DNA from: Bacillota bacterium
GTDB taxonomy: Bacteria; Bacillota; Clostridia; Acetivibrionales; JANLFN01
NCBI GenBank assembly: GCA_023421675.1
Contig: JAEZTC010000013.1
Coordinates: 464,037 to 528,036 of the forward strand
Direction of reading: 5' to 3'
DNA: 64,000 nt
Positions 1,407-50,720 of the stretch are shown in pieces. Numbering within the stretch: position 1 is the first letter of the stretch; each line of letters opens with the position of its first letter. A model generated the notes under the pieces. That model did no database searches and was not told the origin of the DNA. It saw only the letters and a program-made list of their open reading frames with translations. Both the position numbers and the translations under genes were made by a program.

Positions 1407-1407
1407 T

Positions 1408-2385: not shown

Positions 2386-2430
2386 TGCTAAGGATCATGC
2401 CTTAACATAAAAAAACTAGGAGGGAAATTT

Positions 2431-3456
2431 ATGAAACGGAAAAAGAATATCGCTCTGGTAGTTGCACTTGTATTCTCTATGATGACATTTGTTGGGTGCT
2501 CATCTAACACATCCACTGATTCAAGCACTAACGCATCAACTAATGCAGCAGCTACACAAGCAAGTAAATCCGGCAAGAGTGGAATCAAAATAGGTATTTT
2601 ACAGAAAAGCCGTTCAGATCAGTATCAGATTTTGCTTAATTCCTCACAGGAAGCTAAGCTGAAGGAATTAAAGTCGTCCGGTAAAATTGATACATATTAC
2701 CAGGTTGATGCAGACACTGATGTCCAAAAACAGCTTAATCAAGCAGATGACATGATCGCTATGAAGGTTAATGTAATAGTAATGAGCCCTGTAGATGCTA
2801 ATGGCTGTGCACCTATTGTTGAAAAGTGTAAAAGTGCAGGAATTCCCTTAGTAATAGTGAACTCTAAGACAAGCAATGTAGATGATGCAACAGCCTTCGT
2901 CGGATCAAATGATGTTGAAGCCGGCGAAATCATGGGCAAATATATAGCTGAGCGTATTGGTGGTGTTGGCAAAGCAACCGGCAAGGTATTACAACTCGAG
3001 GGCGATATAGGAAATTCAGCACAGATTGACCGTGACAAGGGCTTAAAAAATACTATCTATAAAGAAAAAGGTGTTAAGATATTGGAATCACTCAGCGGAA
3101 AATGGCTGCGTGAAGAGGGTATGCGTATTACTGAAGACTGGCTGCAGAAATATCCGGAAATCAGCGCAATTGCAGCAGAAAACGACAATATGGCTATGGG
3201 TGCCTTGAATGCAGTAATTAATGCAGGAAGAAAAGATAAAATTGTTATAGTCGGTGTTGATGCAATCGAAGATGCTCTAATCAGTATAAAGAAAGGTGAA
3301 TTGGATGCAACTGTACGTCAGGATGGACAAGGACAGGGCTCAGGCAGTATTGATGTTGCAATGAAAATTGCAAATGGTGAAAAATACGATAAAGTAACCA
3401 ATATACCTTTTGTATTAATAACTAAAGAAAATGTTGACCAATACTTAAAGAAATAG
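2431..3456 (+). CDS. Sugar ABC transporter substrate-binding lipoprotein (RbsB-like, periplasmic-binding-protein type I)
   Basis: Signal peptide with lipobox FVGC followed by a Ser/Thr-rich linker. The sequence is PBP type I-like (VNVIVMSPVD, VGVDA motifs). RBS aggaggg lies upstream. It is the third gene of the ABC operon. Confidence 0.85.
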   Translation: MKRKKNIALVVALVFSMMTFVGCSSNTSTDSSTNASTNAAATQASKSGKSGIKIGILQKSRSDQYQILLNSSQEAKLKELKSSGKIDTYYQVDADTDVQKQLNQADDMIAMKVNVIVMSPVDANGCAPIVEKCKSAGIPLVIVNSKTSNVDDATAFVGSNDVEAGEIMGKYIAERIGGVGKATGKVLQLEGDIGNSAQIDRDKGLKNTIYKEKGVKILESLSGKWLREEGMRITEDWLQKYPEISAIAAENDNMAMGALNAVINAGRKDKIVIVGVDAIEDALISIKKGELDATVRQDGQGQGSGSIDVAMKIANGEKYDKVTNIPFVLITKENVDQYLKK

Positions 3457-3496
3457 TTATTTAGTATCAGAATCTAGGCAAAGCACAAAGGATAAA

Positions 3497-3530
3497 GGTC
3501 TCCGGTCAAAAACGGCCGGAGGCTTTTTTT
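3497..3530 (+). terminator. Rho-independent terminator after the ABC operon
   Basis: GC-rich hairpin ggtctccgg...ccggaggc followed by a run of 7 T. Confidence 0.75.
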
Positions 3531-3595
3531 ACAGAAATGATTTGCGTCATAATTACACGTGGGCTTAAGAAAAAATTATACGAAAGGGTGATTAT

Positions 3596-5299
3596 TTGAG
3601 AACTTTAAAATTAAATTTGAATTGGTCGCTGAGAAAAAAGCTTATTACGAGCTTTGTTTCAATAATATTGCTGATGAGTATAATCAGTTTAATAATATAC
3701 CTTACTTTTTCGTCAACAACAAGACAGATGGATAGGATGATTCAAAACACAATAACTGCTAATGGCATCAATAGTTCGGCGGAGAAAATAATAGAAATAC
3801 TTCCTGATGTTATTGGAAATAATGATGAGACCTCCATAAAGGAAATAGAAGACAATCTCAATTTAATAAATACCAATACAGCAATTCTCATAGAAGACAT
3901 ACCTTCAGATGACCAAAACGGTAAAGCCTCTTTCGAAACAGTTCACGAGATTTGTGAGACGTTTATTACTAATGTTGGTGAGGTATTAAAATTCAGCAGT
4001 GATCATAAACTCACTGAAGCCATTAAATCAAAAGAGTCCGCATTAAAAGTAAAAGATTTTATGAAAAACAATATATATAATTATATATCTATAGAATTAA
4101 ATAATAATAAAATTCTGCAGCAAAAATTAAACGAAAAAACACGGTTAATGGGCTTCATGATTTTGCTTTCCATTATAGTGATAGGTCTTGTGAGTATTAT
4201 ATTTGCTGTAATATTCTCAAACAATACTGCAAATATGATATCTAAATTGGCGAAGCATGCTCAAAGTATTGCCGGTGGTAATCTTCAAATTAATCAGGTT
4301 AAGGTCAAATCAAAGGATGATATTTCAATATTGGCTGATTCATTTAACAAAATGCTGGAGAATTTACAAACTTTAATTGGAAAAATTGGAAGCAGCAGTG
4401 ATAATGTGGCAAGCTCGGCGGATATGCTCAAAAGAAATGTGGAGCAAAGCAATCTTGCTATTGAGCAAGTGGCTAATTCTATTCAGAAGGTTTCACAGGG
4501 ATCTTTCGAACAATCTGAACAGACACAAAAAATTGTTAATGTTATGAATGATTTGTATGAAGGAAATAAGAAAATGTATGAGAATGCCCATAATATTCTG
4601 GACACATCCGAAAAAGCTACAAATGCAGCAAACGTAGGCAACGAAAAGATGGAATCATTACTCAATCAAATTAGCGTCATAGAAGGAAAAATCATAGCCA
4701 CCCAAGCTGTCACAGAAACTCTTAAAATGCATTCTAAGGAAATAAAAAAAATACTCGACGCAATTACAAATATTGCATCCCAAACCAATTTACTGGCTTT
4801 AAATGCGGCAATTGAAGCAGCAAGAGCAGGAGAACACGGAAAAGGTTTTGCAGTGGTAGCTGATGAAATCCGCAAGCTGGCTGAGGGGTCTGCAAATGCT
4901 ACGCAGGATATAACAGGCATACTGAAGGATATACAATCGGAAACACAACAGGTTGCTTACAGTATGTCATTAGGCGTTCAAGAAGTAAAAGAAGGTACCC
5001 AGATGGCTGAAGAAGCCAGGACTTCATTTGGTGAAATTGTAATCACAAGTGAAAAAGTTGACTGCCAAATAAAGAGTATTACGCAGGAAATTGAAAATAT
5101 GGTAGACGAGATAAAGATGGTTGAAACGATGAGCAGAAGTATTTCAGATATTGCGGCTGAGTCTTCTGCCGGAAGTGTCGAAGTGGCCTCTGCGGTTGAA
5201 GAACAGACAGCCAGTCTTCAAGAAATATTCTCATCGGCTTCTGTTCTGTCGGAAATGGCGGACGAACTTCAAAAGATAGTTAGACAATTTAAATTGTAG
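3596..5299 (+). CDS. Methyl-accepting chemotaxis protein
   Basis: Two TM segments flank a sensor region of about 150 aa, followed by a HAMP region. The highly conserved MCP signalling hairpin is present ([34 protein letters not shown]). Confidence 0.92.
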
Positions 5300-21999: not shown

Positions 22000-23661
22000 C
22001 TATTTTTCTTCATCCTTTTTTCTGATTTCTGTTCTTCTTATTTTACCGCTTATTGTTTTAGGCAGTTCATCGACGAATTCAACTATTCTAGGGTACTTGT
22101 AAGGTGCAGTCGCTTTTTTAACATGGTTCTGCAAATCTTTTACCAGTTGATCGCTCGGACTCCAGCCTTTTGCAAGAACTATTGTCGCTTTAACTACCTG
22201 ACCTCTGATAGGATCGGGAGCGGAGGTTATTGCGCATTCAAGAACCGAAGGATGCTCCATCAAGGCACTTTCAACTTCAAAAGGTCCAATTCTATAACCC
22301 GAACACTTGATAACGTCATCGGATCTTCCTACAAACCAGAAATATCCATCTTCATCCCTCCAGGCAACATCTCCGGTGTTGTAAACACCATCGTGCCATA
22401 CCTTGCTTGTAGCTTGTTCATCTCGATAGTATCCTCTGAAAAGTCCGGGAGGAACCTCCTTATCCAAACCTCTAATTACAATGTTGCCTTCCACACCTGT
22501 AGCACATGAGCGGCCCTCTTCATCAATTATATCTATATCATAGAGGGGTGATGGTTTGCCCATTGAACCTGGTTTTGGAGTAATCCACTCAAAGTTTGCG
22601 CAAAGTACAGTCGTTTCAGTTTGTCCAAACCCTTCTATAATTTCAAGTCCTGTTGCTTTTTTAAACTGGTTGTAAACCTCAGGATTCAAAGGTTCACCTG
22701 CAGTACATGCCTTCCTTATGCTTGAAAAATCAAACTTTGATAGATCTTCCTTGATTAAGAATCTGTATATTGTAGGTGGTGCGCAGAAGGTAGTTACGTG
22801 ATATTTTTGGATCATTTCTGCTAATGAATGTGAATCAAACCTTTCCATATCATATACAAAAATTGCTACTCCGCAAATCCACTGTCCATAAATCTTTCCC
22901 CAACCGCATTTTGCCCAGCCGGTTTCAGATACTGTGAGGTGAAGTCCCTCGTCAGTAAGGCCTTGCCAGTAATGAGCCGTTACAATATGCCCAATAGGAT
23001 GGTTGAAATTATGTAAAACTATTTTTGGCATACCGGTTGTTCCTGATGTAAAGTACATTAACATAGGATCTTCTCCACCGGCAGCTTCACTTCCGGTGGG
23101 TCTTGTCCAATCAGATGATGCTTTTTCAAGCTCTGCATCAAAATCGATCCAGCCATCCCTTTTTCCGTCTACAAGTGCTTTGTGAACAACTGTTGGTGAC
23201 TCTGGAAGTGCTTCTTCGATACTATCCAGAAGCTCATCATCAATAACGGATAAAATCATCTTAACCGATGCGGAGTTGTTTCTATATGCAATATCTTTTT
23301 TTGTCAATTGTGAAGTAGCTGGTATGGATATGGCCCCAATCTTTTCAAGTGCCAGGGTGCATACCCAGAAATGCCAGCGCCTTTTTAACAGGAACATTAC
23401 AACATCGCCTTTGTTTATTCCTAAAGATTTGAAAAGGTTAGCTGCTTTATCACTCATCCTTTTGAGCTGTCCAAAGGAGAAAATCTTTTCATCGCCGTGA
23501 TCGTTGCACCATACTAAGGCTCTTTTATCAGGCTTTTCCGCTGCCCAGGCATCAATTACATCATATGCAAAATTAAATTTCTCAGGAATATTTACTTTAT
23601 AATTATTTTTAAAATCTTCATATGAATCAAATCTTTCTCTAGGTAAAAATTTTTCTAACAT
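22000..23661 (-). CDS. AMP-forming acyl-CoA synthetase (medium-chain / ACSM-like)
   Basis: AMP-binding motif [19 protein letters not shown], a GDxxxxDxDGYFxFxGRxDD box, and the C-terminal [10 protein letters not shown]. Confidence 0.9.
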
Positions 23662-30696: not shown

Positions 30697-31602
30697 TTAT
30701 GCAGTAAAATAAATTATTGCCGCACTTGATAATACCCATAAAATCATATCTATAAGCAGCGGCTTGTCTGATAATATAACTTCTTCGGGACTGCCGCCTT
30801 CGTTTTTCTTGTAGATTATATATTGATACCTGAATATGCCATAAAGCACAAAGGGTATGGTAGACATAAGGTAATAGTTGCTTCGCGAGCTGAAGGTGTA
30901 GAGTGTGTAAGCCATAACTGTAGAAGAAATAATAATCGAAAGCATTTTATCTATAAATTCAAGTGAATATTCATCAAGTATTTTTCTATGATGTTCGGCT
31001 TTTTCTTCAAGAACAAGCAATTCGTTTCTTCTTTTGCTGAACCCAAGGAACAAGGAAAGCAGGAGTGTGCACAACAAAAGCCAGGGTGAAATAAATACAT
31101 CTATTGCTATACAACCACTTATTACTCTTAGTATGAAGCCTAAGGCAATTGACATTACATCAATAATAACCATATGTTTTAGCACAAAGCAGTATAAAAT
31201 ATTATTTGTAAAATAAACTACAATAAGCAGGAACAAGAGCTTGCTGAATATAAATGAACCTATCAGTACAGCAGGTACAAGAATAAATAATAAAACCAGT
31301 GCTTCAGTTTTGCTTATGGCTCCTGAAGCTATTGGCCTTAATTTCTTTTTTGGGTGCAGCCTGTCTTTTGAAGCATCAATCATATCGTTTAAAATGTAAA
31401 CGGAAGATGAAGCTGCACAGAACAGAACAAAACACAACAGTGTTCTTTCGAGAAGATCTGCATGGAGAATGTTATTTGAGAATACAAGCGCAGCAAATAC
31501 AAAAAGGTTTTTTATCCATTGTTTGGGTCTGAAAAGCTTAATATAAGATTTTAATTTGTTGTTTGCCTGTAGTTCGGCATTTTGTCCCATTGTATTCTCC
31601 AT
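30697..31602 (-). CDS. UbiA-family polyprenyl-phosphate phosphoribosyltransferase (decaprenyl-phosphate 5-phosphoribosyltransferase-like)
   Basis: A 301-aa ORF with about 8 TM segments. The Asp-rich motif is NDMIDASKDRLHPKKKLRPIASG, as in DPPR synthase-type UbiA enzymes. Confidence 0.75.
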   Translation of the reverse strand: MENTMGQNAELQANNKLKSYIKLFRPKQWIKNLFVFAALVFSNNILHADLLERTLLCFVLFCAASSSVYILNDMIDASKDRLHPKKKLRPIASGAISKTEALVLLFILVPAVLIGSFIFSKLLFLLIVVYFTNNILYCFVLKHMVIIDVMSIALGFILRVISGCIAIDVFISPWLLLCTLLLSLFLGFSKRRNELLVLEEKAEHHRKILDEYSLEFIDKMLSIIISSTVMAYTLYTFSSRSNYYLMSTIPFVLYGIFRYQYIIYKKNEGGSPEEVILSDKPLLIDMILWVLSSAAIIYFTA

Positions 31603-31613
31603 TTGTGTTTTCC

Positions 31614-31958
31614 TTATCTTGTAATAACAATTATACCTATTATAATTATTGCCAAGCCAATAATGTTATTTAAGTGTATCTCTTCGTGAAGGAAGAAATA
31701 GGCCAGAAACATTGTAAAAATATAACCCAGACTGACAAGGGGATAGGCTACACTGAGTTTTTCCTTTGACAGAAAGTTGATCCACAAAATAGCGCTTAAG
31801 CCGTAACTGAATAAGCCCAGCATTAAATACTTGTCAGTAAAAATGGTGAAAAACCTGCTGAGACTTAATTTATTAAAAGTGTCTGATCCAAGCTTTAAAA
31901 GAAGCTGAGCAACCGCACCAAGCGAAATGCTTAAAAGTGCTGTTAAATACTTATACAT
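31614..31958 (-). CDS. Small 4-TM EamA/SMR-like protein (ArnE/ArnF-type polyprenyl-phospho-sugar flippase-like)
   Basis: A 114-aa ORF with four TM helices and an SVAYPLVSLGYIF motif typical of ArnE-like proteins. It ends 12 nt upstream of the UbiA gene start on the same strand. Confidence 0.6.
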   Translation of the reverse strand: MYKYLTALLSISLGAVAQLLLKLGSDTFNKLSLSRFFTIFTDKYLMLGLFSYGLSAILWINFLSKEKLSVAYPLVSLGYIFTMFLAYFFLHEEIHLNNIIGLAIIIIGIIVITR

Positions 31959-32075: not shown

Positions 32076-32107
32076 AAAAACCCGGAGATAATGCTCTCCG
32101 GGTTTTG
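32076..32107 (-). terminator. Rho-independent terminator after the paralog array
   Basis: Hairpin cccggaga...tctccggg. A T-run follows on the minus strand. Confidence 0.75.
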
Positions 32108-32116
32108 AATCTCATA

Positions 32117-33778
32117 TTAAAAGATGTCTATGTATGGAATGTCTTCAAAAACCTTAAAAGAAAAATCCGCCAAGGCTTTTTCTTTGGTTTTACGATCATT
32201 AAAATAGTATTCTGATATATTCAACCAGTCATTGTTTATAATATCGTCTAATCCTGTTGCTGTAGTGGCGTTTATATCGTTGGCTATAGGTTCATATACC
32301 TTAAATATATTCTGATTAATAGTCTTGTTTATATATGTATCATCATTTTTAAATTTACTTACCAATTCCTTGTTATTAATAAAATCTCCATAATTCTGTG
32401 CACATTCTTCCAAATGATCCCTATCAGAGGTCAGGTATTTCATAAACTGCCATGATAAATCTTTTTTATCACTTGTCGCGGACATGCAAAGAACTGTTCC
32501 TCCCCAATAGTAGTTATAGGGAGCCTTTGCTATACCCCACATTCCTTTGTTAAGATTACTTCTGTCGTTGGCTTCTATAATATTTGAAATTCCCCATGTA
32601 GGAATTGCAAAACACATAGTTGTTCTGTCACTAATAGACTCATTCCAAGAAGGAGTCCATGCTCTTATATCTCCTGAATATTTATTCTTGAAAAGATATT
32701 TTTGCAAATCCAGGCATTCAATCATTTTTGAATCAATTGTCAGCTTATTATTCACTATCCATGGCTGAGATCTGGCGCAGCTGTACAATTGGAAGAGATC
32801 TTCATGTCCAGGGAATAATTTTGCTGTGCCTTTACTATTGTTATAAAGTGTTTTTGCTGTTCCAATTATGTTTTCAGGAGATGAAAGCATATTTCCGATC
32901 TTATCAGGGTCATCAGTTCCCAGGTACTTTTTAGCGATGTCCCTTTTATAACCAACTCCACCTGGACATGCATACCATGAAAGACCCTTTAGATTACCCT
33001 CATAATCTTTTGCAATATCCAATGTAAAGGGGAACATGTTGCTTGTTATATCAGCAGCTTTGTATTTATCTAAGCCCAAGTTTTCGCAAAGTCCATCTAC
33101 GTCAATAAAACGCTTAATAAAAGCAGATTCTAATGCAAATAGATCTGGCATACCTGAATTTGCACGATAGGCAGCAGCCAATTTGTTTTGATAGTTTAAC
33201 TGGGTATCCGGAGTTACTGTTAAATATATTTTAGTTTCAGGGAATTTTTTTGTTAATGCTTTTTTAATATTATCTGCTTCATATTTATAATAGTGCCATA
33301 TAGTAATTGAATTGGAAGAATCCATTCTGACATTGTCTATTGATAATGTATTTGTTTTTGAGTTAAATGTCAGGCTATAACCAAGTGCTTCAAGAACTAT
33401 ACGGATAGGCAGATAGGTTTTGTTGTTCTTAACAGTTGAAATTGTATCATTGATAAGTATCTGACCGTTTTTATATATGTAAGGCTTTCCGAAAGGTACC
33501 TCAATTATTGTATCACCTTTTACAACAATTACTGAATTCTTCTTACTATTAACACTAACCGTTGCTCCAAGCGGCTCAAGTGTTGCCCTTAAAGGTACCT
33601 GCATTCTTCCGTTTGAATCATAATAAGGGTAACCGGTAGAATCGTCGTAAACCAGTTGCTGACCGTTTAATATAATAGTGATTTGGCTGGCTTGTGCATT
33701 GGAAAATGTAATTCCACAAGAAAACACTATAAAAAAGCATATAAGAAAACTGACCCGAGATATCAATTTTTTAGACAT
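32117..33778 (-). CDS. Secreted fusion protein: copper-amine-oxidase-N-terminal-like domain + family-1 extracellular solute-binding domain (paralog A)
   Basis: Signal peptide MSKKLISRVSFLICFF. A block of about 110 aa (GRMQVPLRATLEPLGATV...TYLPIRIVLEALGY) resembles the Cu_amine_oxidN1 domain. About 400 aa follow with SBP features (PDLF, GYKRDIAKKYLG, PTWG, WGG). Confidence 0.7.
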   Translation of the reverse strand: MSKKLISRVSFLICFFIVFSCGITFSNAQASQITIILNGQQLVYDDSTGYPYYDSNGRMQVPLRATLEPLGATVSVNSKKNSVIVVKGDTIIEVPFGKPYIYKNGQILINDTISTVKNNKTYLPIRIVLEALGYSLTFNSKTNTLSIDNVRMDSSNSITIWHYYKYEADNIKKALTKKFPETKIYLTVTPDTQLNYQNKLAAAYRANSGMPDLFALESAFIKRFIDVDGLCENLGLDKYKAADITSNMFPFTLDIAKDYEGNLKGLSWYACPGGVGYKRDIAKKYLGTDDPDKIGNMLSSPENIIGTAKTLYNNSKGTAKLFPGHEDLFQLYSCARSQPWIVNNKLTIDSKMIECLDLQKYLFKNKYSGDIRAWTPSWNESISDRTTMCFAIPTWGISNIIEANDRSNLNKGMWGIAKAPYNYYWGGTVLCMSATSDKKDLSWQFMKYLTSDRDHLEECAQNYGDFINNKELVSKFKNDDTYINKTINQNIFKVYEPIANDINATTATGLDDIINNDWLNISEYYFNDRKTKEKALADFSFKVFEDIPYIDIF

Positions 33779-33812
33779 TTTTTGAACCCCTCTCTTAATG
33801 TATGAATACGTA

Positions 33813-33841
33813 ATTTTAACATTATTATCAAGGGGTTACAA
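33813..33841 (-). promoter_or_regulatory. Candidate sigma-A promoter of paralog A (TTGTAA-17-TAAAAT) inside a duplicated 41-nt block
   Basis: The block 33811-33851 matches 37362-37402 at 40 of 41 positions. On the minus strand it reads TTGTAA, a 17-nt spacer, then TAAAAT, about 35 nt upstream of the start codon. Confidence 0.5.
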
Positions 33842-33976
33842 TAATAACTAACAATAATTTACAGAATCTATTTCATTGTCGACAAAGACTCTCTCTAATG
33901 GATAATAATATTATCTTTGTTATCAAAATTTACAACGTTTTAGTGTGTATGAAATAGGCTTATATTTACTAAAATT

Positions 33977-35629
33977 TTATTCAACTTTTACATTAGGGAG
34001 ATAAATACTTAAGCCGTTTTTGAAGGCTGCAATTGCTCGTTCTTTAGTGAGTTTATCATTGAAATACCGATAGGAATAATCCAGCCAGTTCTCATTTAAT
34101 ACATCATCAAACTCAGTAATATTCTTTGCGTTAATATTTTTTGTCAAAGGCTCAAAGGTTTCATAAAAGTTTTGGTTTAACGTACTATTAAAGAAGGAGT
34201 TATTGTTCTTTAATTCTTCAATCAGTTCTAAATTATTTATAAAATCACCAGTATTATATGCCCATTGTCTTAATTGATCCTTATCTGATGCTAAGTACTT
34301 AAGCATTTTCCAACAAGTATTTTTTTTGTTACTGTTCGCTGATATACAAAGCCAGTCTCCACCCCAATAATAGGGATAGGGGGCTTTTGCTATTGACCAT
34401 CTTCCGCTGCCTTTATGTTCACGATCCGAAAATAGTATATATTCAATTCCCCAAGTTGGAATTGAATAACACATATAAGTATCATCTTGTATTGATGCAT
34501 CCCAAGCTGGTGTCCAAGATTTTATATTTCCTGAGTATTTATTACTCTCCAGACTTTTTTCCAAATCAAGATATTCCAACATTTTTGAATCAATGGTAAG
34601 TTTGTTATTAGCTGTCCATGGCAGAGATTTAGAACATTTATATGCTTGAAATAATTCATCCGCTCCAGCAAATAACTTAGCTTTACCCTTACTTGCATCA
34701 AATAATTTTTTTCCTGTATTTAATATATTAGCTGATGAGGATAGCATTTCCCCGATTGCATCGGGATTATCAGTTCCCAAGTACTTTTTGGCGATATCCC
34801 TTTTATAACCTATCCCTCCCGGGCATGCCATATATGTAAGTCCTCTAAGAGTACCATTGTTATCCTTTGCAACATCAACGGTATAAGGAATCATGTTTTT
34901 TGTTATTTCAGAGGCAGTATACTTTGCTGAATCCAGGTTCTCACATAATCCATCTGTATTAATAAATTTTTTTATAAAGCTTGACTCGGCAACAAAAATA
35001 TCCGGAAAACCGGAACCTGCCCTAAAGCTGGCTATGATTTTATTTTGATAAGCAGAATTAACATCGTTAATTTGTGTAAAATTAATATTCATATTAGGGA
35101 AATTTCTTTTGAGTGCCTTATATAAATTCTCCTCTACTTTTTTAGAATAGTTCCAAAAGTTAACTGATGAAGAAATATCAGACATTTCAATTCTTAGTGT
35201 ATTGGTTTTAGAGTCAAATAAAAGGGTGTATCCAAGGGCCTCAAGAACTATTCGTATTGGTAAATAGGTTCGATTATTTTTAACTGTTGAAACAGTATCG
35301 TTTAAAATCAAAACTCCATTTTTATATATAAAACTTTTTCCGAAAGGGACTTCAATTGTGATACTGTTCTTTTGTACAATTACTGAATTTTTATCACTAT
35401 CTACATAGATGGTTGCTCCCAAGGGTTCAAGTGTTGCCCTTAAGGGTACCTGCATTCTTCCGTTGGAATCGTAATATGGGTAACCTGTAGAATCATTGTA
35501 AGTCAGTTTCTGACCGTTTAAAAATATATTAATTTGACTGCCTTGTGCATTTGTGAAGGTAATTCCACAAGAAAAGACTATTATAAAGCATATAAGAAAA
35601 CTGACCCGAGATATCATTCTTTTAGACAT
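33977..35629 (-). CDS. Secreted CuAO-N-like + solute-binding-domain fusion protein (paralog B)
   Basis: Same architecture as paralogs A and C. Long stretches are identical to C (for example ITKNMIPYTVDVAKDNNGTLRGLTYMACPGGIGYK). Only 49 nt separate it from paralog C upstream. Confidence 0.7.
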   Translation of the reverse strand: MSKRMISRVSFLICFIIVFSCGITFTNAQGSQINIFLNGQKLTYNDSTGYPYYDSNGRMQVPLRATLEPLGATIYVDSDKNSVIVQKNSITIEVPFGKSFIYKNGVLILNDTVSTVKNNRTYLPIRIVLEALGYTLLFDSKTNTLRIEMSDISSSVNFWNYSKKVEENLYKALKRNFPNMNINFTQINDVNSAYQNKIIASFRAGSGFPDIFVAESSFIKKFINTDGLCENLDSAKYTASEITKNMIPYTVDVAKDNNGTLRGLTYMACPGGIGYKRDIAKKYLGTDNPDAIGEMLSSSANILNTGKKLFDASKGKAKLFAGADELFQAYKCSKSLPWTANNKLTIDSKMLEYLDLEKSLESNKYSGNIKSWTPAWDASIQDDTYMCYSIPTWGIEYILFSDREHKGSGRWSIAKAPYPYYWGGDWLCISANSNKKNTCWKMLKYLASDKDQLRQWAYNTGDFINNLELIEELKNNNSFFNSTLNQNFYETFEPLTKNINAKNITEFDDVLNENWLDYSYRYFNDKLTKERAIAAFKNGLSIYLPNVKVE

Positions 35630-35678
35630 TTTATGCCCCCTGAATATTAATGATAAAATTTATTAAACATTTTTAATA

Positions 35679-37331
35679 TTATTCTGTTTCTACAGATGGA
35701 AGATAAGTATCTAGCCCATTTTTAAAAGCTGCTATTGATTTTTCTCTTGTGAGCTTATCACAGAAATAACGTTCGGAATAATCCAGCCAGTTCTTATTTA
35801 AAACATCATCAAATTCAGTAATATTCTTTGTATTAATATTTTTAGTTAAAGGCTCAAAAACTTCATAAAAGTTTTGGTTTAACGTACTATTAAAGAATGT
35901 GTTATTACTTTTTAGTTCTTCAATCAGTTCTACATTATTTATAAAATCATCAGTGTCATATGCCCATTGTCTTAATTGATTCTTATCGGATGTTAAGTAC
36001 TTAACCATTTTCCAACTGGTATATTTTTTATTACTGCTAGCTGATATAGATAGCCAGTCTCCACCCCAATAATAGGGGTAAGGGGCTTTTGCTATTGCCC
36101 ATCTGCCGCTGCTTTTGTTTTTATCATTATCATAAATAATATCCTTAACTCCCCACGTAGGCATGGCATAACACATGTTGATATCGTCTTGTATTGACCA
36201 GTTCCAAGCCGCTGTCCAGGCTCTCATTCTACCTGAGTATTTATTGCTTTCCAGAACTTTTTGAATATCAAGATATTCTGTTGTTTTTGAATCAATTATC
36301 AGCTTAGTGTTTACTATCCACGGCTGGGATTTTGCAAATGAATAACTATGATAGAGTTCATCCATCCCAGCAAACAATTTAGCTTTTCCATTACTTGCAT
36401 CATACATTCTTTTTGCGGTATTTAATATATTGTCCGATGAGGAAAGCATTTTCCCGATTTCATCAGGATTATCAGTTCCCAAGTACTTTTTTGCGATATC
36501 TTTTTTATATCCTATTCCTCCCGGGCATGCCATATATGTAAGGCCTCTAAGGGTACCGTTGTTATCCTTTGCAACATCGACGGTATAAGGAATCATGTTT
36601 TTTGTTATTTCAGAAGCATTATACTGTGCTGAATCCAGGTTTTCACACAGTCCATCGGTATTAATGAAATTTTTTAAAAAAGCCGATTCTACCCCAAAAA
36701 TATCTGGTAAACCTGAACCTGCTCTAAAACTGGCGGTCAGCTTATTTTGATAAGCCGATATTGTATTAGGTGTAATTACTAGGGTAATATTTACATTGGG
36801 AAATTTTGTTGTAAGTGACTTAGTAAGATTTTTTCCCGCATCCGGCTCGTAATGCCAAAGGATAATTGATGAAGAGAGTTCGGGTTGCTGAATTCTTAGG
36901 GTATTTGTCCTAGAATCAAATATAAGGGTGTAACCAAGAGCCTCAAGAACTATTCGTATTGGTAAATAGGTTCTATTGTTTTTTACTGATGAAACAGTAT
37001 CATTTAAAATCATAACTCCATTTTTATATATAAAACTTTTTCCGAAAGGCACTTCAATTGTTATATTATCTTTTATAACTATAACCGAATTATTTTCACT
37101 GTCAACACTGACTGTTGCTCCAAGCGGCTCAAGTGTTGCTCTTAAGGGTACCTGCATTCTTCCATTGGAGTCATAAAACGGATAACCGGTGGAATCATTA
37201 TAAATAAGTTTTTGGCCATCCAAAATTATTGTAATTTGGCTGGTTTGCGCATTGGAGAACATAATTCCGCACGAAAAAACTAAAAAAAAGCATATGAGAA
37301 AACTAACCCGAGATATCAATTTTTTAGACAT
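35679..37331 (-). CDS. Secreted CuAO-N-like + solute-binding-domain fusion protein (paralog C)
   Basis: Same architecture as A and B. RBS aaggagg lies upstream. Confidence 0.7.
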   Translation of the reverse strand: MSKKLISRVSFLICFFLVFSCGIMFSNAQTSQITIILDGQKLIYNDSTGYPFYDSNGRMQVPLRATLEPLGATVSVDSENNSVIVIKDNITIEVPFGKSFIYKNGVMILNDTVSSVKNNRTYLPIRIVLEALGYTLIFDSRTNTLRIQQPELSSSIILWHYEPDAGKNLTKSLTTKFPNVNITLVITPNTISAYQNKLTASFRAGSGLPDIFGVESAFLKNFINTDGLCENLDSAQYNASEITKNMIPYTVDVAKDNNGTLRGLTYMACPGGIGYKKDIAKKYLGTDNPDEIGKMLSSSDNILNTAKRMYDASNGKAKLFAGMDELYHSYSFAKSQPWIVNTKLIIDSKTTEYLDIQKVLESNKYSGRMRAWTAAWNWSIQDDINMCYAMPTWGVKDIIYDNDKNKSSGRWAIAKAPYPYYWGGDWLSISASSNKKYTSWKMVKYLTSDKNQLRQWAYDTDDFINNVELIEELKSNNTFFNSTLNQNFYEVFEPLTKNINTKNITEFDDVLNKNWLDYSERYFCDKLTREKSIAAFKNGLDTYLPSVETE

Positions 37332-37363
37332 TTTTGTACCTCCTTATGTTGGTTGACTTAATA

Positions 37364-37392
37364 ATTTTAACATTATTATCAAGAGGTTACAA
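37364..37392 (-). promoter_or_regulatory. Candidate sigma-A promoter of paralogs C-B (TTGTAA-17-TAAAAT), the duplicated 41-nt block
   Basis: See 33813-33841. The element sits at the same spacing from the start codon. Confidence 0.5.
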
Positions 37393-37455
37393 TAATAACT
37401 AATCATACAATATCGATGTATATTATTAGATGATAGAACTTTAGAATGTTAACTT

Positions 37456-37491: not shown

Positions 37492-37524
37492 AAAGCAGCA
37501 GAACTTTTGGTTCTGCTGCTTTAT
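37488..37524 (-). terminator. Rho-independent terminator of the SleB-like gene
   Basis: Hairpin agcagcagaac...gttctgctgct. On the minus strand it is followed by ttttatttt. Confidence 0.8.
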
Positions 37525-37536
37525 TCGTGCTGTCCC

Positions 37537-38313
37537 TTAGTATGTGAACACCATGTTTCCCACTCTCAAAGCTATAGGTTTTGACCATATCCACTTATTT
37601 GTGGTACTGTCGTCAAAGTAGTAGACTGCACCCTTTGTTGGGTCAGCACCATGAAGCGCTTCATATGCGGCGTTTTTTGCAGCTTGCGTAGCGGGCTTGT
37701 TTATCATCCCGTTTTCAACAGGTGTAAACTGGTAGTAACCACCGTCAATCTGATAGATTACTCCGCTTAAGGTATTAGGCCAACGTGAGTCCTGAACCCT
37801 GTTAATTATAGTTGCACCCACCGCTACCTGAGCACTATAGGGCTGTCCGTCCGCTTCTGCGGTAATAATCCTTGCCAAAAGATCCAAGTCGCTGGCAGTA
37901 TAAGGTATTACTGGTTGATTAGCTGTTCCGGTTTGACCACTCATTGGTGAAACCGGTATTATCAACTTTTGTCCTACATAAATCGAATCGTTCCATTTAT
38001 TATTAGCATTTCTTAATGAGTAAAGTGATATCCCGTTATTTACAGCGATTTTATAAAGGGTATCTCCCGACTTTACTGTATACACTTTTCCTGGTACGTT
38101 TATAACCTGACCAGGGTAAATTGCAGACCCCGTAAGGTTGTTAGTCTGTTGAAGGACACTTACGGTTGTATTGAACTTTGCACCGATAGTGTAAAGAGAA
38201 TCACCCTTTACTACTGTGTATCCTGCAGCAAACACGGATTGAGAAAAAATTATTACTGTTAAAGGCAAAGCAAATAAAAAGGCTTTTGCCTTCCTTGAAT
38301 TAAACTTAAACAT
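37537..38313 (-). CDS. Cell-wall hydrolase, two LysM domains + SleB/CwlJ-type (Hydrolase_2) catalytic domain
   Basis: Signal peptide present. Two LysM repeats (YTVVKGDSLYTIG..., YTVKSGDTLYKIA...). The C-terminal LARIITAEADGQPYSAQVAVGATIINRV...YQF matches the SleB family. Confidence 0.88.
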   Translation of the reverse strand: MFKFNSRKAKAFLFALPLTVIIFSQSVFAAGYTVVKGDSLYTIGAKFNTTVSVLQQTNNLTGSAIYPGQVINVPGKVYTVKSGDTLYKIAVNNGISLYSLRNANNKWNDSIYVGQKLIIPVSPMSGQTGTANQPVIPYTASDLDLLARIITAEADGQPYSAQVAVGATIINRVQDSRWPNTLSGVIYQIDGGYYQFTPVENGMINKPATQAAKNAAYEALHGADPTKGAVYYFDDSTTNKWIWSKPIALRVGNMVFTY

Positions 38314-38440: not shown

Positions 38441-38687
38441 ATGTAAACCATGTTAACATGACCTTGATGTGTATTCCAATACAATATTTATGGATATAAA
38501 GTCACTTTTTAACTTTTAAGTATATAAAATAAAACCACAATAATTTTATTTTATCAAAAATATGTAAACTAATTGTCGAAATTTAATCTTATGTGTTATA
38601 ATTAGATAAATTGTATACTTAAGGTAACCTGGAATTCCGTTGTTAGATTTACAGCTTTGCAATCTACATTTTGAATGGAGTACTGGC

Positions 38688-40196
38688 ATGCGAAGGCTTT
38701 ATGATAACTATCTGAAGTACTACCTTAATAACCCGGAAAAACCTCATTTGAGGATTAGGTTTATTATCTTACTTATATTTATAGCACTTACCATTACATT
38801 TCAACTTATTGTATCCAAAGATTTTACTCTATCTATTATCTTAGAAGAGCTTCTTATTATAACAGTATTCTTATGCAGTTACTTTTATGGATACCTGGGT
38901 ATAATAGCTGCGATTCCTGCTATTATCTTTGAAATGGTATTTAACCTGGTGGGTTGGGTTAGCAAGGATAGTATGTATGATGTTTCACAGCTGGTACTGG
39001 ATGTAAATATAATTATTATTTCAGGTTTTATTGCTCAGCTTGTTGAAAGAGAAAGAATAAAGCAAATGAAGCTTGAAAGGCTTGCTATTATTGATCCCAT
39101 AACAGAGGTTTATAATAATAAATATTTTCTTTCAAGGCTTGAAGAAGAGATTGCACGTGCAACAAGAAATGAAAAATCTGTAGGCCTTATAATGGCTGAT
39201 ATTGATAATTTTAATAAATTTATAGATCTTAACGGACATGGTCAGGGTGACATACTTTTGAAAAAGACTGCACAAGTTCTCGAGCAGTATACTAGGTGTC
39301 ATGACATTGTTTGCAGATATAGTGATGACCAATTTGCAGTAATACTTCCTGATATTGAAGCGGCTGAAATGGATGCAGTCATAGGCAGAATGAGAACAAT
39401 ATATATGCAGACCACGCAGGAGGGGTGCAGCTCATATGATGGCAAAATGACAATGTCAATGGGCTTTTCTTTGTACCCTGAACTTGCTAAAAACACCGAT
39501 GAGTTGATTACCCAGGCTGATACCGCACTTTACCATGCTAAAAACCGAGGAAGAGACAAAGTTCAAATATACAAGGACGTTTTTGATGAAATTAGACACA
39601 GCTTCGGAACAAATGAACAACAACTCTTATCAAGCCTCAAGATTCTTCTTGGCACAATTTCAGGCAAGGATAAATATACTTTCGGTCATTCTGAAAGAGT
39701 AATGAGCTACTCTGTCCAAATTGCTAATGCAATGGGTCTGGAAACCGGCAAAATTAAAATTCTTAAAATAGCAGCACTCCTTCATGATATAGGAAAGGTC
39801 GAGATTGCTGAATCTATTCTCAACAAACGTGAAAAATTGAATGATTATGAATTTGCAGTCCTTCGCAGACACCCGGTTTATAGTGCAAATATGCTGGAAT
39901 CATTGTCCTATATCGATGGGCTTGTTGAGATAGTTCGCGCACACCATGAAAGATACGATGGAGAAGGTTACCCTGACAGGCTTGCAGGAACAAACATTCC
40001 GCTTGAATCCAGAATACTCGCTGTAGCTGACTCTTATGATGCAATGCTTTCTAACCGTCCATACAGGAAAGGTCTTGGTATTGAAGGAGCAAAGCAGGAA
40101 CTTAGGAATTGTTCCGGAACCCAATTTGATTCTGTTATTGTAGAAGCATTTCTTAAAGAACTTGAAGTTCAGGAAGAAAGTAAAAATACTGCTTAA
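38688..40196 (+). CDS. Membrane protein with degenerate GGDEF domain and HD-GYP phosphodiesterase domain
   Basis: The ORF opens at TTG 38640, but ATG 38688 follows GGAG. The N-terminus has multiple TM segments. The GGDEF position reads SDDQF, with RCHD (an RxxD I-site) five residues upstream. HD-GYP is intact (HDIGK, HHERYDGEGYP). Confidence 0.85.
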   Translation: MRRLYDNYLKYYLNNPEKPHLRIRFIILLIFIALTITFQLIVSKDFTLSIILEELLIITVFLCSYFYGYLGIIAAIPAIIFEMVFNLVGWVSKDSMYDVSQLVLDVNIIIISGFIAQLVERERIKQMKLERLAIIDPITEVYNNKYFLSRLEEEIARATRNEKSVGLIMADIDNFNKFIDLNGHGQGDILLKKTAQVLEQYTRCHDIVCRYSDDQFAVILPDIEAAEMDAVIGRMRTIYMQTTQEGCSSYDGKMTMSMGFSLYPELAKNTDELITQADTALYHAKNRGRDKVQIYKDVFDEIRHSFGTNEQQLLSSLKILLGTISGKDKYTFGHSERVMSYSVQIANAMGLETGKIKILKIAALLHDIGKVEIAESILNKREKLNDYEFAVLRRHPVYSANMLESLSYIDGLVEIVRAHHERYDGEGYPDRLAGTNIPLESRILAVADSYDAMLSNRPYRKGLGIEGAKQELRNCSGTQFDSVIVEAFLKELEVQEESKNTA

Positions 40197-41083: not shown

Positions 41084-41515
41084 ATGTTTCTCTATTATGC
41101 ATCCATAACGATTGCTATAGCATCAAATCTTTTCTATTATATAATACAAAAATCAACACCTGAAAATGCGAACCCAATACTGTCACTGGCTGTGACCTAT
41201 TTTACTGCAATGGTTACTTGTATAGTTGTTTTCCCTTTTTACCCAAACAATGGGCAAACTATAGGGGAATCCTTGAAGAAATTGAATTGGACAAGTATAA
41301 CTCTTGGGGTAGCAATAGTCGGTTTAGAAATGGGATTTCTGCTTGCGTTCAGGTCTGGATGGAATCTAAGTACCGCAGGGATTTTTGCAAATGTTGTAGT
41401 TGCAATAATACTTATACCTGTTGGACTCATGTTTTTTAAAGAAACCCTAAGACCAATAAATTTTGCAGGAATTATATTATGTATAACGGGATTAATTTTA
41501 ATGACAAAAAAATAA
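41084..41515 (+). CDS. Small DMT/EamA-like membrane transporter (half-size, 4-5 TM)
   Basis: A 143-aa hydrophobic ORF whose C-terminal NFAGIILCITGLILM resembles an EamA domain end. Confidence 0.5.
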   Translation: MFLYYASITIAIASNLFYYIIQKSTPENANPILSLAVTYFTAMVTCIVVFPFYPNNGQTIGESLKKLNWTSITLGVAIVGLEMGFLLAFRSGWNLSTAGIFANVVVAIILIPVGLMFFKETLRPINFAGIILCITGLILMTKK

Positions 41516-47521: not shown

Positions 47522-47602
47522 TCTACCATGATGGATTGTAATTCATCAGGACAAAACCATACCTGGACATAATTGAAATTTAATATTCAGGGGGTACTAA
47601 AA

Positions 47603-48310
47603 ATGGAAAAGACCTTGTTTAAAACCGAAAACCTGACAAAAGAATATGATATGGGTGAGGTCAAAGTTAAAGCACTCGATTCGGTATCAATTCAAATTCC
47701 GGAAGGAAAGCTGGTAGTTGTTCTGGGCCCCAGCGGATCTGGAAAGAGTACACTATTGAATATTCTTGGAGGGATGGATAGTCCGTCATCAGGAAAATTA
47801 TTTTTTAAGGGTACCGATATCTCATCCTATAATAATTCCGATTTAACGGCCTTCAGACGTAATAATATGGGCTTTGTTTTTCAATTCTATAATCTTATGC
47901 CAAACCTTACAGCTCATGAAAATGTTGAACTTGCTACTGAAATAAGCAAACAGCCTCTTAATATTATGGAAGTGCTTGAAGTTGTGGGAATAAAGGACAG
48001 AGCAGGACATTTTCCTTCACAGTTGAGCGGAGGTGAACAGCAGAGGGTTGCAATAGCAAGAGCTGTTGCCAAGAATCCTGATGTTCTGTTATGTGATGAA
48101 CCGACAGGTGCGTTGGATTATACAACAGGTATCAAAATTCTTAAGCTTTTAAGCGATATTAACAAAACAACCGGAAAATCTGTAATTATAATTACTCACA
48201 ATCAGCCTATCGCAGATATGGCTGACATAGTCCTTAGAATGAGAGATGGCAATGTTTCCAGTATTCATTTTAATGACAATCCTTTAGAACCTGAAAAAAT
48301 AGTGTGGTAA
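47603..48310 (+). CDS. ABC transporter ATP-binding protein (MacB/LolD/FtsE-like exporter ATPase)
   Basis: ATG at 47603 follows aggggg (the ORF opens at 47573). Walker [10 protein letters not shown], signature [14 protein letters not shown], Walker [12 protein letters not shown]. Confidence 0.9.
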
Positions 48311-48353
48311 CCTTTTAACTGCTTAATTCAGCCATTTCCGGAGGATATAAATT

Positions 48354-50720
48354 ATGAAAAAAATAAATTTGATTTTAAAAAGAGAAATCATAAAGGGCAA
48401 GGGACAGTTCATTGCTGCAGCATTGGTTGTATTAATCGGTGTTGCGGCTTTCCTGGCAACTTATACATCATATCTGAATTTAAATAATTCTGCAAAATCA
48501 TATTATGACAAGTATAATTTACTTGATTATTATGCACAGGTTAAAAGTATTTCTGATAATGAAATTCAACAGGTTGGCAAAATTCAAGGTGTAAAAAATT
48601 CTTCGGGTCGTATATGTGTTGATATTACCGGTGATATGGGAAGTGACAGAAGAGCAACTCTTAGAGCAATATCGGTTCCGGATAACAGTGAACCCGCAAT
48701 TAACCGGCTTCATTTTGTTAAAGGTAGCTTTTTTGATAGTAATAGTTTTGATGAATGTCTTATAAGTGACAAGTTTGCAAGCTTTTATAAGCTAAAAACA
48801 GGGGATACAGTAAAGACAAATATCCAGGGTAACCCTTATGAGTTTAAAATTCATGGAATTGTAAACAGTCCTGAATATGTTTATGCAATCAAATCTGCTG
48901 CAACACTTTTGACTTCAGACGGGGACTTTGGAATTATTTATATAAAAGAGTCACAGTTAAAGAAAATGACAGGTGCAGGCGATGCATTCAACCAGGTTCA
49001 TTTTACTTTGTCAGAACAATATAATAATCCCGATACTATTAAAAAAATAGAAAATGCTTTAAAACCGGCGGGCTTTTTATACGGTATGGTACGTAAGGAT
49101 CTGGCCAGTTATGCGATGCTTAGCGATGATATAAACATGCTGGAAGAACTTGCTGTAATTCTTCCATTGCTGTTCCTTTCAGTAGCAGCAATGATTATTT
49201 ATGTAATATTAAAAAGAGTTGTTAATAATCAAAGAACCCTGATTGGTGTTATGAAAGCGTTTGGGTATTCTGACAAAAAGGTATTAAAACATTACATTTC
49301 ATATTCGCTGCTAGTAGCATTAACCGGTGCAGTACCTGGAACGATATTTGGTATGGGTTTGGGAGCCTTGATTACAAGAATGTATACTCAGTTCTATAAC
49401 ATTCCTGAGTTGAGTGTTAAAATATATTGGACAGAAATGCTGCTGGGAATATTGGTAAGTATAATATTCAGTCTTGTAGCGGGTTACAATTCAACAAAAA
49501 AAATCTTAAAGCTTGAACCGGCTCAATCCATGAGGTCGGAGCCTCCTGTTTCGGGTAATAAGATACTTGTTGAAAAAATAAAACCGTTGTGGAAAAAGTT
49601 ATCCTTTGGCTGGAAAATGAGTATCAGAAATATTTTTCGGGCCCGTCAAAGAGCTGTCATGACAATGATAGGTTTTGTGTTTACAATAGTTTTGCTGGTG
49701 GGTACGCTTTTCTTTCTGGATTCCATGAATTATATTTCAGATGAGTATTATAAGGATTTTCAAAGACAGGACTACAAGGTTTTATTCAATAGCCCGGTGC
49801 AGTATGATGAAACATACAAATTGTTGAAAACAGAAGGAATAAACAAGCTTGATCCCATACTGGAACTACCGGTTGAGATTATAAAGGATAATAAAAAATC
49901 GGACATGATGTTAACGGCAATTGGAAAAGATAATACTCTTTACAAGCTGAAAGATAAGGAAGATAACAAAATGACTGTTCCCAAGGGTGGAGTTATTCTT
50001 CCGCATTCAATGGCTGAGAAGATTTCTGTTAATATTGGTGACGTTGTAACAATAAAATCACATGTTCCCGGGTTTGATACTGCAAAGGTGAAAGTTGTCG
50101 GCATAATGAAACAATATATTGGTTTCAGCTGTTATATGAATATAGAAGATTTAAAGCAATATACGCAGAATCAAAAACTTGCAAATGCTGCGTTAATTAA
50201 GGTTAATGACGGAATGGACGGGAAGGTACAGCATAATTTATATCAAAATAAGAGTGTTGACTTCCTGGAGAGCAGATTAACCTCAGCTGAAACTTTTGAT
50301 AAATTTACAGGGATTATCTACATCTTTATCGGTGTACTGGTTGCTTTTGCGCTCGTGATGGGAGGAGCAATTGTGTTTAATTCAACCGTCATAAATATAA
50401 TGGAGAGAAAGCGTGAACTTGCATCTCTTAAGGTGTTGGGGTATTCATTAAAGGAAATAAAGCTTGTAATTTTAAGGGAGAACATGTTGCTTGGTTTCCT
50501 CTCTCTGGTCCCGGGACTTATATTGGGAAGACTTATGTGCGGCTTCCTGGCAAATATGTTTAACAATAATTACTTCGTAATGCCTGTAATAGTCAATATA
50601 CCTACCTATATAATAGCTGCTTTAAGTATATTTGTTTTTGCAGGTTTTGCTCAGTTTGCTAACCGTAAGAATATGACGGGACTTGATATGGTAGAAACAT
50701 TAAAGAACAGGGAAGGTTAA
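48354..50720 (+). CDS. ABC transporter permease with two FtsX/MacB-type domains
   Basis: A 788-aa ORF. An N-terminal TM segment and large extracytoplasmic domain precede a 4-TM FtsX block, and this pattern is then repeated. It is adjacent to the ATPase gene. Confidence 0.85.
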   Translation: MKKINLILKREIIKGKGQFIAAALVVLIGVAAFLATYTSYLNLNNSAKSYYDKYNLLDYYAQVKSISDNEIQQVGKIQGVKNSSGRICVDITGDMGSDRRATLRAISVPDNSEPAINRLHFVKGSFFDSNSFDECLISDKFASFYKLKTGDTVKTNIQGNPYEFKIHGIVNSPEYVYAIKSAATLLTSDGDFGIIYIKESQLKKMTGAGDAFNQVHFTLSEQYNNPDTIKKIENALKPAGFLYGMVRKDLASYAMLSDDINMLEELAVILPLLFLSVAAMIIYVILKRVVNNQRTLIGVMKAFGYSDKKVLKHYISYSLLVALTGAVPGTIFGMGLGALITRMYTQFYNIPELSVKIYWTEMLLGILVSIIFSLVAGYNSTKKILKLEPAQSMRSEPPVSGNKILVEKIKPLWKKLSFGWKMSIRNIFRARQRAVMTMIGFVFTIVLLVGTLFFLDSMNYISDEYYKDFQRQDYKVLFNSPVQYDETYKLLKTEGINKLDPILELPVEIIKDNKKSDMMLTAIGKDNTLYKLKDKEDNKMTVPKGGVILPHSMAEKISVNIGDVVTIKSHVPGFDTAKVKVVGIMKQYIGFSCYMNIEDLKQYTQNQKLANAALIKVNDGMDGKVQHNLYQNKSVDFLESRLTSAETFDKFTGIIYIFIGVLVAFALVMGGAIVFNSTVINIMERKRELASLKVLGYSLKEIKLVILRENMLLGFLSLVPGLILGRLMCGFLANMFNNNYFVMPVIVNIPTYIIAALSIFVFAGFAQFANRKNMTGLDMVETLKNREG

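Follow-up and report, generated by a model that had tools for sequence, protein, structure and literature searches.

A window of 64,000 nucleotides from a Bacillota bacterium (Clostridia; Acetivibrionales; JANLFN01), which corresponds to positions 464,037 to 528,036 of contig JAEZTC010000013.1 in the assembly GCA_023421675.1, carries an array of three paralogous genes whose products combine a secretion signal, a domain resembling the N-terminal domain of copper amine oxidases (CuAO-N), and a solute-binding protein (SBP) domain. The three open reading frames (ORFs) lie head to tail on the minus strand and are transcribed in the order C, B, A. Gene C (35679-37331; 550 aa; paralogue type 1) is the first of the array, and encodes a signal peptide (37248-37331), a CuAO-N domain (36882-37241) and an SBP domain (35682-36881). 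Gene B (33977-35629; 550 aa; paralogue type 2) follows, with the corresponding parts at 35546-35629, 35180-35539 and 33980-35179, and gene A (32117-33778; 553 aa; paralogue type 5) closes the array, with its signal peptide at 33695-33778, CuAO-N at 33329-33688 and SBP domain at 32120-33322. These assignments come from ORF translation and Pfam matches and, in the case of B, also from an AlphaFold2 (AF2) model. A preliminary description of the window, made from its letters and translated ORFs, had reported three head-to-tail genes of 550-553 aa that encode near-identical signal peptides and a CuAO-N-like domain followed by a family-1 solute-binding domain; all of these features were borne out, the genes lying at exactly the coordinates reported.

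Architecture and transcription of the array

The first 28 residues are near-identical in A, B and C, and comprise a K/R-rich start, a hydrophobic core of 17 aa, which is the sole hydrophobic segment in each of the proteins, and an F[ST]NA motif followed by Q. Judged by these motifs, the start would be a Sec-type signal with a cleavage site like that of signal peptidase I between A and Q. The possibility that A, B and C are lipoproteins, modified on a conserved Cys21, was considered and set aside: the only lipobox-like stretch, VFSCG, has F at position -2, and VFSC appears to be both a poor motif and buried inside the hydrophobic core, so that no membrane tether is predicted. Beyond the signal, Cu_amine_oxidN1 (PF07833) is recognised at residues ~37-147 of all three proteins with 72-74 bits (E ~1e-20), against a gathering score of 24.2 bits, and the matches span model positions 2-108 of 108; SBP_bac_8 (PF13416) and/or SBP_bac_1 (PF01547) follow at residues ~171-473, above cut-off (E 1e-13 to 1e-5). 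Pfam gave no Dockerin_1 match in any of the three, and an NCBIfam search of the array proteins returned nothing informative. Amino-acid identity amounts to 75% for the pair B-C and to 60% for both A-B and A-C, and the CuAO-N part is 76-86% identical among the three proteins, against 53-72% for the SBP part, in agreement with the earlier remark that A has diverged most, mainly in its binding domain. A further ORF of 553 aa in the window (22000-23661) was considered as a fourth copy and proved to be an AMP-binding acyl-CoA synthetase.

Public databases label such proteins only as 'extracellular solute-binding protein' or 'copper amine oxidase-like domain-containing protein'. The preliminary description did not recognise the fusion as a characterised system, and no characterisation of CuAO-N-SBP or dockerin-SBP fusions was found in the literature searched, which included the paper on the cellulosome proteome of Pseudobacteroides cellulosolvens and its supplements.

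The array has transcription signals of its own. Upstream of C, a promoter scan detected a promoter/operator-like element at 37362-37398 on the minus strand (TTGTAA-17-TAAAAT, with a TG extension), which is overlapped by the inverted repeat ATTATTAT...ATAATAAT. The same 37-nt match recurs upstream of A, at 33811-33847 on the minus strand; the two copies are identical, no occurrence being expected in the window by chance, and when the regions upstream of C and A are aligned this element is the sole conserved block. B starts 49 nt downstream of C, and the two genes are probably co-transcribed. On the 5' side, the array is bounded by an intrinsic terminator that follows the upstream LysM/Hydrolase_2 gene (37492-37522, minus strand; 13-bp stem and T run), and on the 3' side by one that follows gene A (32077-32106, minus strand; 12-bp stem and T run). 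The two bracketing terminators and the duplicated promoter element thus mark the array as an autonomous transcription unit. No Rfam RNA element was found in the leaders of the array, the sole match across 31.5-38.8 kb being the c-di-AMP riboswitch of a neighbouring gene.

The SBP fold and its predicted sugar cleft

The AF2 model of B has a predicted local distance difference test (pLDDT) score above 90 over residues 160-540, and its top match in Foldseek is CebE with bound cellotriose (8bfy; E 8e-24), followed by hundreds of other SBP matches. Among these are further CUT1 oligosaccharide SBPs, including the cellodextrin binder CbpB of Clostridium thermocellum (7x0i-m), and the best solved relatives by sequence are CebE of Streptomyces scabiei (8bfy) and 5ixp. 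The fold suggested by the preliminary description is thereby confirmed, and the SBP domain of the array is a bona fide member of the CUT1 oligosaccharide-binder type (SBP subcluster B), with a two-lobed class II fold. Despite this common fold, CebE and CbpB are membrane-tethered and encoded with permeases, whereas the array proteins carry a Sec signal and CuAO-N and have no permease in the 64 kb.

The contacts made by cellotriose in CebE, a cellotriose/cellobiose receptor (PMC10714786), were mapped onto the array by alignment only, the two being ~20% identical. On this mapping, all forms compared share the residues that correspond to E125, F282 (W here), W303 and G333, the stacking W303 lying in an invariant PTWG motif, and the equivalent of W331 is also kept in A, B and C; with these core stacking and cleft residues in place, the cleft looks competent for sugar binding. 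Other positions of the predicted first shell vary. The equivalent of D173 is M in C and B and Y in A, whereas Q occupies it in all permease-linked forms compared, both dockerin forms and the majority of the other CuAO-N fusions; at the equivalent of Y307, C, B and A have D, Y and N, respectively, and at that of S334 C and B have D and A has T. Of 105 positions conserved among the permease-linked forms, the array keeps 51. The ligand-specificity drift that had been proposed for the three copies therefore appears plausible, in that the predicted first-shell positions differ both between paralogues and from the canonical forms.

Anchor replacement and orphan status across the family

Homologue searches returned few close full-length relatives and many SBP-only relatives of ~450 aa at 35-49% identity, the closest of which are 40-46% identical over the whole SBP domain. 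These closest relatives carry a lipobox (LFAGC, VMVGC, LLAC) and then a low-complexity linker of 35-40 residues, and their genes sit in operons of the order LacI-SBP-permease-permease-GH94 (for example in Geosporobacter: P0010, L003/L015), GH94 phosphorylase genes being present at 8 of the 9 closest canonical loci. The lineage of the window has such a lipoprotein SBP paralogue of its own (P0012-P0014). GH3 and aminotransferase genes lie upstream of its gene, and the gene after it encodes a MalF-type permease with the EAA motif and 55% identity to the permease of the Geosporobacter operon. In a neighbour-joining (NJ) tree without bootstrap, the array is the sister of the lineage's own lipoprotein SBPs. 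The array proteins belong to the same subfamily as these lipoproteins and the Geosporobacter SBP, but have neither the lipobox, nor the long linker, nor the adjacent MalFG-type permeases; a Sec signal and CuAO-N stand in place of lipobox and linker, and the linker that is left is very short. In other clostridia, it is a type I dockerin that occupies the same position of the same SBP subfamily (P0021/L008, P0029, L024). These dockerin-bearing members resemble the array in that an N-terminal module replaces the lipobox and the genes are orphans; they differ in that the dockerin binds the cohesins of a scaffoldin, and neither dockerin nor cohesin is present in the window of the array. The best explanation of this pattern is that the array proteins derive from the lineage's own cellodextrin-type importer receptor through a swap of anchor.

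The relation between anchor and genomic context was quantified in a census of 80 reference-genome loci fetched by a profile of the SBP domain only, in which members were classed by N-terminal anchor, MalFG-type permeases were detected with an iterated profile, and the count was taken over distinct genes flanked on either side by 3 kb or more. A permease lies within 3 kb of 41 of the 56 other family members, as opposed to none of the 20 genes that bear CuAO-N or dockerin, for which none was found anywhere within +-10 kb (Fisher p = 3e-9 for module against permease adjacency, kinship not being corrected for). The same orphan pattern emerges independently from Pfam gene tables precomputed for the fetched contigs, and Pfam re-checks confirmed the module calls and added L024 as a further dockerin-bearing orphan. 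Likewise, no MalFG-type permease was found at the syntenic loci L001, L006, L007 and L013, nor, with a jackhmmer profile for BPD_transp_1, among the ORFs of at least 60 aa in the window. The preliminary description had held that orthologues always adjacent to cognate permeases would reduce the array to a rearranged transporter; the outcome was the opposite, as the module-bearing relatives never adjoin a permease. The missing ATPase gene is uninformative in this respect, since the canonical operon of the closest relative is also without one.

Several lines indicate that the orphan fusions do not descend from a single event. The dockerin forms, the Pseudobacteroides group, and L035, L037 and L063 fall apart from the array in the NJ tree (again without bootstrap), and the nearest relatives of the CuAO-N of the window's lineage (47-54%) are modules carried by non-SBP proteins, those of other SBP fusions being less similar; scattered fusion clades, together with modules whose nearest kin lie outside the SBPs, imply that the fusions arose several times. 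The association extends to a second SBP class, as CuAO-N joined to a LivJ-type SBP (Peripla_BP_6) is orphan in 2 of 2 cases, among surface proteins that bear SLH domains and dockerins. In other genera, CuAO-N-SBP and dockerin fusions lie among cellulosome genes. The cultivable P. cellulosolvens encodes a CuAO-N-SBP (WP_036946580.1). About one quarter of the 150 best matches from 1.8 billion representatives have N-terminal extensions of at least 110 aa, and CuAO-N is the commonest recognisable N-terminal module among them.

A number of side observations were made on the same family. Single or rare fusions of the same SBP subfamily involve ChW repeats, dockerin, a Ser/Thr kinase, a caspase-like Peptidase_C14 and N-terminal zinc ribbons; BspA-type leucine-rich repeats also occur as partners, and most N-terminal extensions in the wider family have no Pfam match (P0137-P0282). 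In a Clostridiales metagenome-assembled genome (MAG), a cyclophilin-type prolyl isomerase and LivJ-type binding proteins are joined to CuAO-N (L093 5713-7769; L094 138-2662; L095 4695-6962), and these fusions adjoin an SLH protein of 2447 aa and a dockerin-bearing M28 peptidase. Spirochaete MAGs (L040 6344-15512; L047 688-5755) encode proteins of 728-857 aa that consist of two tandem SBP domains of the array's family; several such genes stand side by side, with no permease within 10 kb. In P. cellulosolvens, a lipobox-bearing family member near a GH94 gene (L079 9830-11190) is frameshifted into overlapping ORFs of 358 and 162 aa, and is either a pseudogene or the result of a sequencing error. 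Among the canonical loci, at least four independent assemblies have a contig break inside or just before the MalF-type permease gene, ~300-900 bp past the SBP-only gene (L002, L011, L012, L016, L017), and in one MAG two canonical SBP genes each stand at a contig end; the repeated breaks suggest that the permease region is itself repeated in the genome.

The CuAO-N module

CuAO-N is found directly after the signal peptide in 84 of 86 relatives, whatever the cargo, and its cargoes include metallo-beta-lactamase, GH26, C1 peptidase, GHL10, ankyrin repeats and SBPs. It thus behaves as a stereotyped leader module of secreted proteins. In one protein (P0053) the domain is internal, at residues 409-528.

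The array proteins carry the full version of the domain, of 120 aa and two repeats. A domain-only AF2 model of B (pLDDT 88.9) matches domain D1 of the E. coli amine oxidase (1oac/1spu) in Foldseek with a root-mean-square deviation of 1.6 A over 73 residues (E about 1e-4), and matches 8IMD weakly (E 0.4); a profile of the domain gives E 6e-6 for the amine oxidase D1 and 1e-3 for 8IMD. The latter structure is that of PaSOD from Paenibacillus lautus, whose PF07833 domain, the only one from a Firmicute that was found to have been studied experimentally in the literature searched, drives homodimerisation, the protein being absent from the culture medium (PMC10432803). PaSOD shares with the array the layout of Sec signal, PF07833 domain and cargo, and is cell-associated; it differs in that its domain has ~75 aa, forms an intertwined homodimer and precedes an enzyme, whereas the array domain has 120 aa, is predicted to be compact, and precedes an SBP. 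Dimerisation of the PaSOD type was considered for the array, and is weakened by the fold search, which favours the monomeric D1 over 8IMD (E 0.4). The preliminary description had taken CuAO-N for a wall-associated module, a reading that is at most putative: as to wall binding by PF07833, only predictions were found in the literature. A role of CuAO-N in retention or targeting may nevertheless be proposed by analogy, given that the lipid anchor and the dockerin, both of them known anchors, are found in its place in homologues.

Evolution of the paralogues

The synonymous divergence (dS) between the paralogues ranges from 0.8 to saturation, and the ratio of nonsynonymous to synonymous divergence (omega) is 0.10-0.26 in both domains; the duplicates are thus old and have been maintained by purifying selection. 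The recent duplication suggested in the preliminary description is refuted, since dS is at least 0.8, even the most similar segments of B and C have a proportion of synonymous differences (pS) of ~0.24-0.3, and their longest identical stretch is not significant. Along the gene, the comparison of B with C is a mosaic, with pS from 0.24 to 0.81; the longest identical nucleotide run measures 36 nt (p = 0.15), and there is no significant identical tract. The only significant identical run, of 32 nt, lies in the signal-peptide codons of A and B. Gene conversion was ruled out as the source of the high conservation of the N-terminal part, which reflects constraint, because dS is alike in the N-terminal and SBP parts. 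Degenerating relic genes were also rejected, on the basis of the omega of 0.1-0.26 and of reading frames that are intact in several genomes.

Syntenic arrays (L006 3072-11662; L007 10001-15037; L013; L014) contain five paralogue types, of which the window retains types 1 (C), 2 (B) and 5 (A). The copy number in relatives is 3-5, with five copies in GCA_023446715.1 and three copies of another type combination in another MAG. In comparison with a near-identical strain (L006), the type-1 copy (C) is 99% and the type-5 copy (A) 98% identical; the type-2 copy (B) is only 91% identical, with a dS of 0.01 in the N-terminal part and of 0.20 in the SBP part, and this contrast suggests that recombination, or the replacement of an allele, affected only the binding domain of that copy.

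Genes surrounding the array

The gene immediately upstream of the array (37537-38313, minus strand) encodes a wall hydrolase with two LysM domains and a Hydrolase_2 (SleB-like) domain, and directly upstream of it lies a c-di-AMP riboswitch of the ydaO/yuaA type (RF00379; 38317-38443, minus strand; 88 bits, E 4e-20). Next comes a gene, divergent from the array (38640-40196), for a membrane protein in which Pfam recognises GGDEF and HD-GYP domains; the protein has about four closely spaced transmembrane helices with short loops, and is without an extracytoplasmic sensor domain. The statement of the preliminary description that no permease, ATPase, sensor kinase or chemoreceptor gene is adjacent thus holds as regards the ATP-binding cassette (ABC) systems, since neither an ABC permease nor an ATPase adjoins the array, and has to be amended for signalling, this GGDEF/HD-GYP gene being nearby. 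Other neighbours are a cluster of AMIN-Amidase_3, PfkB, amidohydrolase and AAT-family protein genes, and a gene for an SH3-NlpC/P60 protein.

Immediately downstream of the array are found genes for a half-size EamA-like membrane protein (114 aa; 31614-31958, minus strand) and a UbiA-family prenyltransferase (30697-31602, minus strand). All relatives have the pair in synteny, and it recalls lipid-linked sugar flippases and prenyl-phosphate sugar systems; a second half-size EamA protein, of 143 aa, is encoded 9 kb away (41084-41515, plus strand). The ABC systems seen among the larger ORFs of the window with Pfam are a CUT2 ribose-type system at 9-3456 and a MacB/FtsX pair at 47573-50720. The former (ATPase, BPD_transp_2 permease and Peripla_BP_4) is followed by a methyl-accepting chemotaxis protein, the whole occupying 9-5299 on the plus strand, and is unrelated to the array; such a combination is the classic layout for SBP-mediated chemotaxis.

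A proposed role at the cell surface and its alternatives

The reading preferred here, to which a probability of about 0.5 is given, is that the array encodes oligosaccharide-binding proteins that are uncoupled from transport, are held in the cell envelope, and serve as surface lectins or in glycan capture. The proteins would be exported and their signal cleaved after F[ST]NA. CuAO-N would then hold them in the envelope through a partner, as suggested by its equivalence in position to known anchors and by its role as a leader module. The two-lobed SBP domain, whose fold and stacking residues are those of sugar binders, would close on an oligosaccharide that is probably beta-linked, and binding would proceed independently of a dedicated permease, in the service of glycan capture or recognition at the surface, in the manner of a lectin or adhesin. 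The three to five diverged paralogues would cover different ligands. Dockerin-bearing relatives provide a parallel: a cellulosomal dockerin puts its protein on the scaffoldin, away from the membrane, so that this sister architecture cannot serve a permease. With neither a membrane tether nor a permease neighbourhood, the array proteins are filed here as SBP-fold proteins that act like binding modules, not as established parts of a transporter.

A number of points weigh against this reading. Retention by CuAO-N, a putative role, is the weakest link of the argument; the characterised PF07833 example dimerises, whereas the array domain is predicted to be a compact monomer like D1. The census spans +-10 kb, is uncorrected for kinship and comprises only about 7-9 independent loci, and some lipobox-bearing members are orphans too, so that orphan status is not exclusive to the module-bearing forms. 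Possible ligands are assigned through alignment to a protein of only 20% identity. Finally, a single contig of 1.02 Mb bears both the array and the canonical locus of lipoprotein SBP and MalF-type permease, and there are well-known cases, such as AliA/AliB with the Ami permease, of orphan SBP paralogues that use one permease in common.

These last two points lead directly to the alternative that survives best, namely that the array proteins are accessory receptors in the interspace between wall and membrane, which feed different oligosaccharides to a distal CUT1 permease and widen its substrate range. Beyond the presence in one genome of a canonical SBP of the same subfamily with its permease, this alternative is consistent with the place of the array as sister group of that SBP in the NJ tree, with the full-length conservation of the SBP domain under purifying selection and its retention of 51 of the 105 permease-linked positions, and with the fact that CUT1 systems are normally without an ATPase gene of their own. 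The nearest precedent, AliA/AliB with AmiCDEF in Streptococcus pneumoniae, resembles the array in having extra SBP genes away from the permease and diverged specificities; those proteins are, on the other hand, lipoproteins of the oligopeptide class whose dependence on the permease has been demonstrated, and the array lacks a lipid anchor. On balance the accessory role is less probable than the preferred reading: the array proteins have no membrane anchor and a very short linker, as opposed to the flexible linker of 35-40 aa of the canonical lipoproteins, and the dockerin sister architecture cannot reach a permease at all. Moreover, were tethering by CuAO-N compatible with the feeding of a permease, some fusions would be expected to act as the primary receptor of an operon, and none does so across several independent fusions and two SBP classes; the first-shell positions are changed, so the permease would have to accept new substrates; and no regulatory element common to the array and the canonical SBP-permease operon was found, which means that there is no sign of co-regulation.

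The presence of the GGDEF/HD-GYP gene, syntenic with the array in all close relatives, evokes the question of whether the proteins are signalling co-receptors, which would act on a membrane protein such as this enzyme and convey the presence of glycans to cyclic di-GMP (c-di-GMP), motility and biofilm formation. Proteins of the SBP_bac_8/SBP_bac_1 type are known to stimulate c-di-GMP enzymes and sensor kinases (PMC8050422), and a Ser/Thr kinase is among the fusion partners found in the wider SBP subfamily. In the NspS-MbaA system of Vibrio cholerae (PMC8050422), an SBP_bac_8-type protein indeed serves recognition, not import; such signalling SBPs adjoin a receptor with a periplasmic sensor domain, however, and the array has no such partner, as the GGDEF/HD-GYP protein exposes no ligand-binding domain outside the cytoplasm on which an SBP could act. 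Its gene is also set apart from the array by an intervening gene and a strong terminator, the CuAO-N-SBP loci of Pseudobacteroides, Herbivorax and others are without such a neighbour, and it would be unusual for one receptor to be served by three to five paralogues, all of which makes a signalling role improbable.

A role as receptors for peptidoglycan or cortex oligosaccharides freed by nearby wall hydrolases, in wall turnover or germination, is the least probable of all: the surroundings are rich in envelope genes (LysM/Hydrolase_2, AMIN-Amidase_3, SH3-NlpC/P60, and EamA with UbiA), the array departs from the GH94-linked canonical forms at first-shell positions, and the GH94 family also includes chitobiose phosphorylases, but terminators separate the array from the envelope genes, the fusions of other genera sit among cellulosome genes instead, and the nearest structures and operons indicate gluco-oligosaccharides.

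Implications for surface proteins of clostridia

SBPs of Gram-positive bacteria are generally taken to be membrane-tethered parts of importers. The uncoupling of an SBP from transport is in itself already known, from signalling SBPs and orphan paralogues; the novelty lies in how systematically the swap of anchor goes with orphan status, and in the hypothesis regarding PF07833 that results from it. The domain is widespread on secreted proteins of Firmicutes, and the pattern by which it replaces a lipid anchor or dockerin provides a retention or targeting hypothesis that can be tested. In its most general form, advanced here as a tentative possibility, the proposal is that PF07833 could serve clostridia generally as a means of retention in the envelope, exchangeable for lipid anchors and dockerins, and that in combination with SBP folds it would yield transport-independent surface 'lectins' of Gram-positive bacteria, with arrays such as this one, of three to five copies, constituting a diversifying repertoire for glycan recognition or adhesion. 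Proteins of this kind could also be of use as soluble oligosaccharide binders with varied specificities.

The recurrence of lipid-anchor loss together with loss of the permease neighbourhood suggests that some of the proteins annotated as 'ABC transporter substrate-binding proteins' are not parts of transporters, and misannotation of this kind would affect the reconstruction of metabolism from genomes and MAGs. If the general proposal on PF07833 and surface 'lectins' is true, such arrays would represent a Gram-positive counterpart of the surface glycan-binding proteins of Bacteroidetes.

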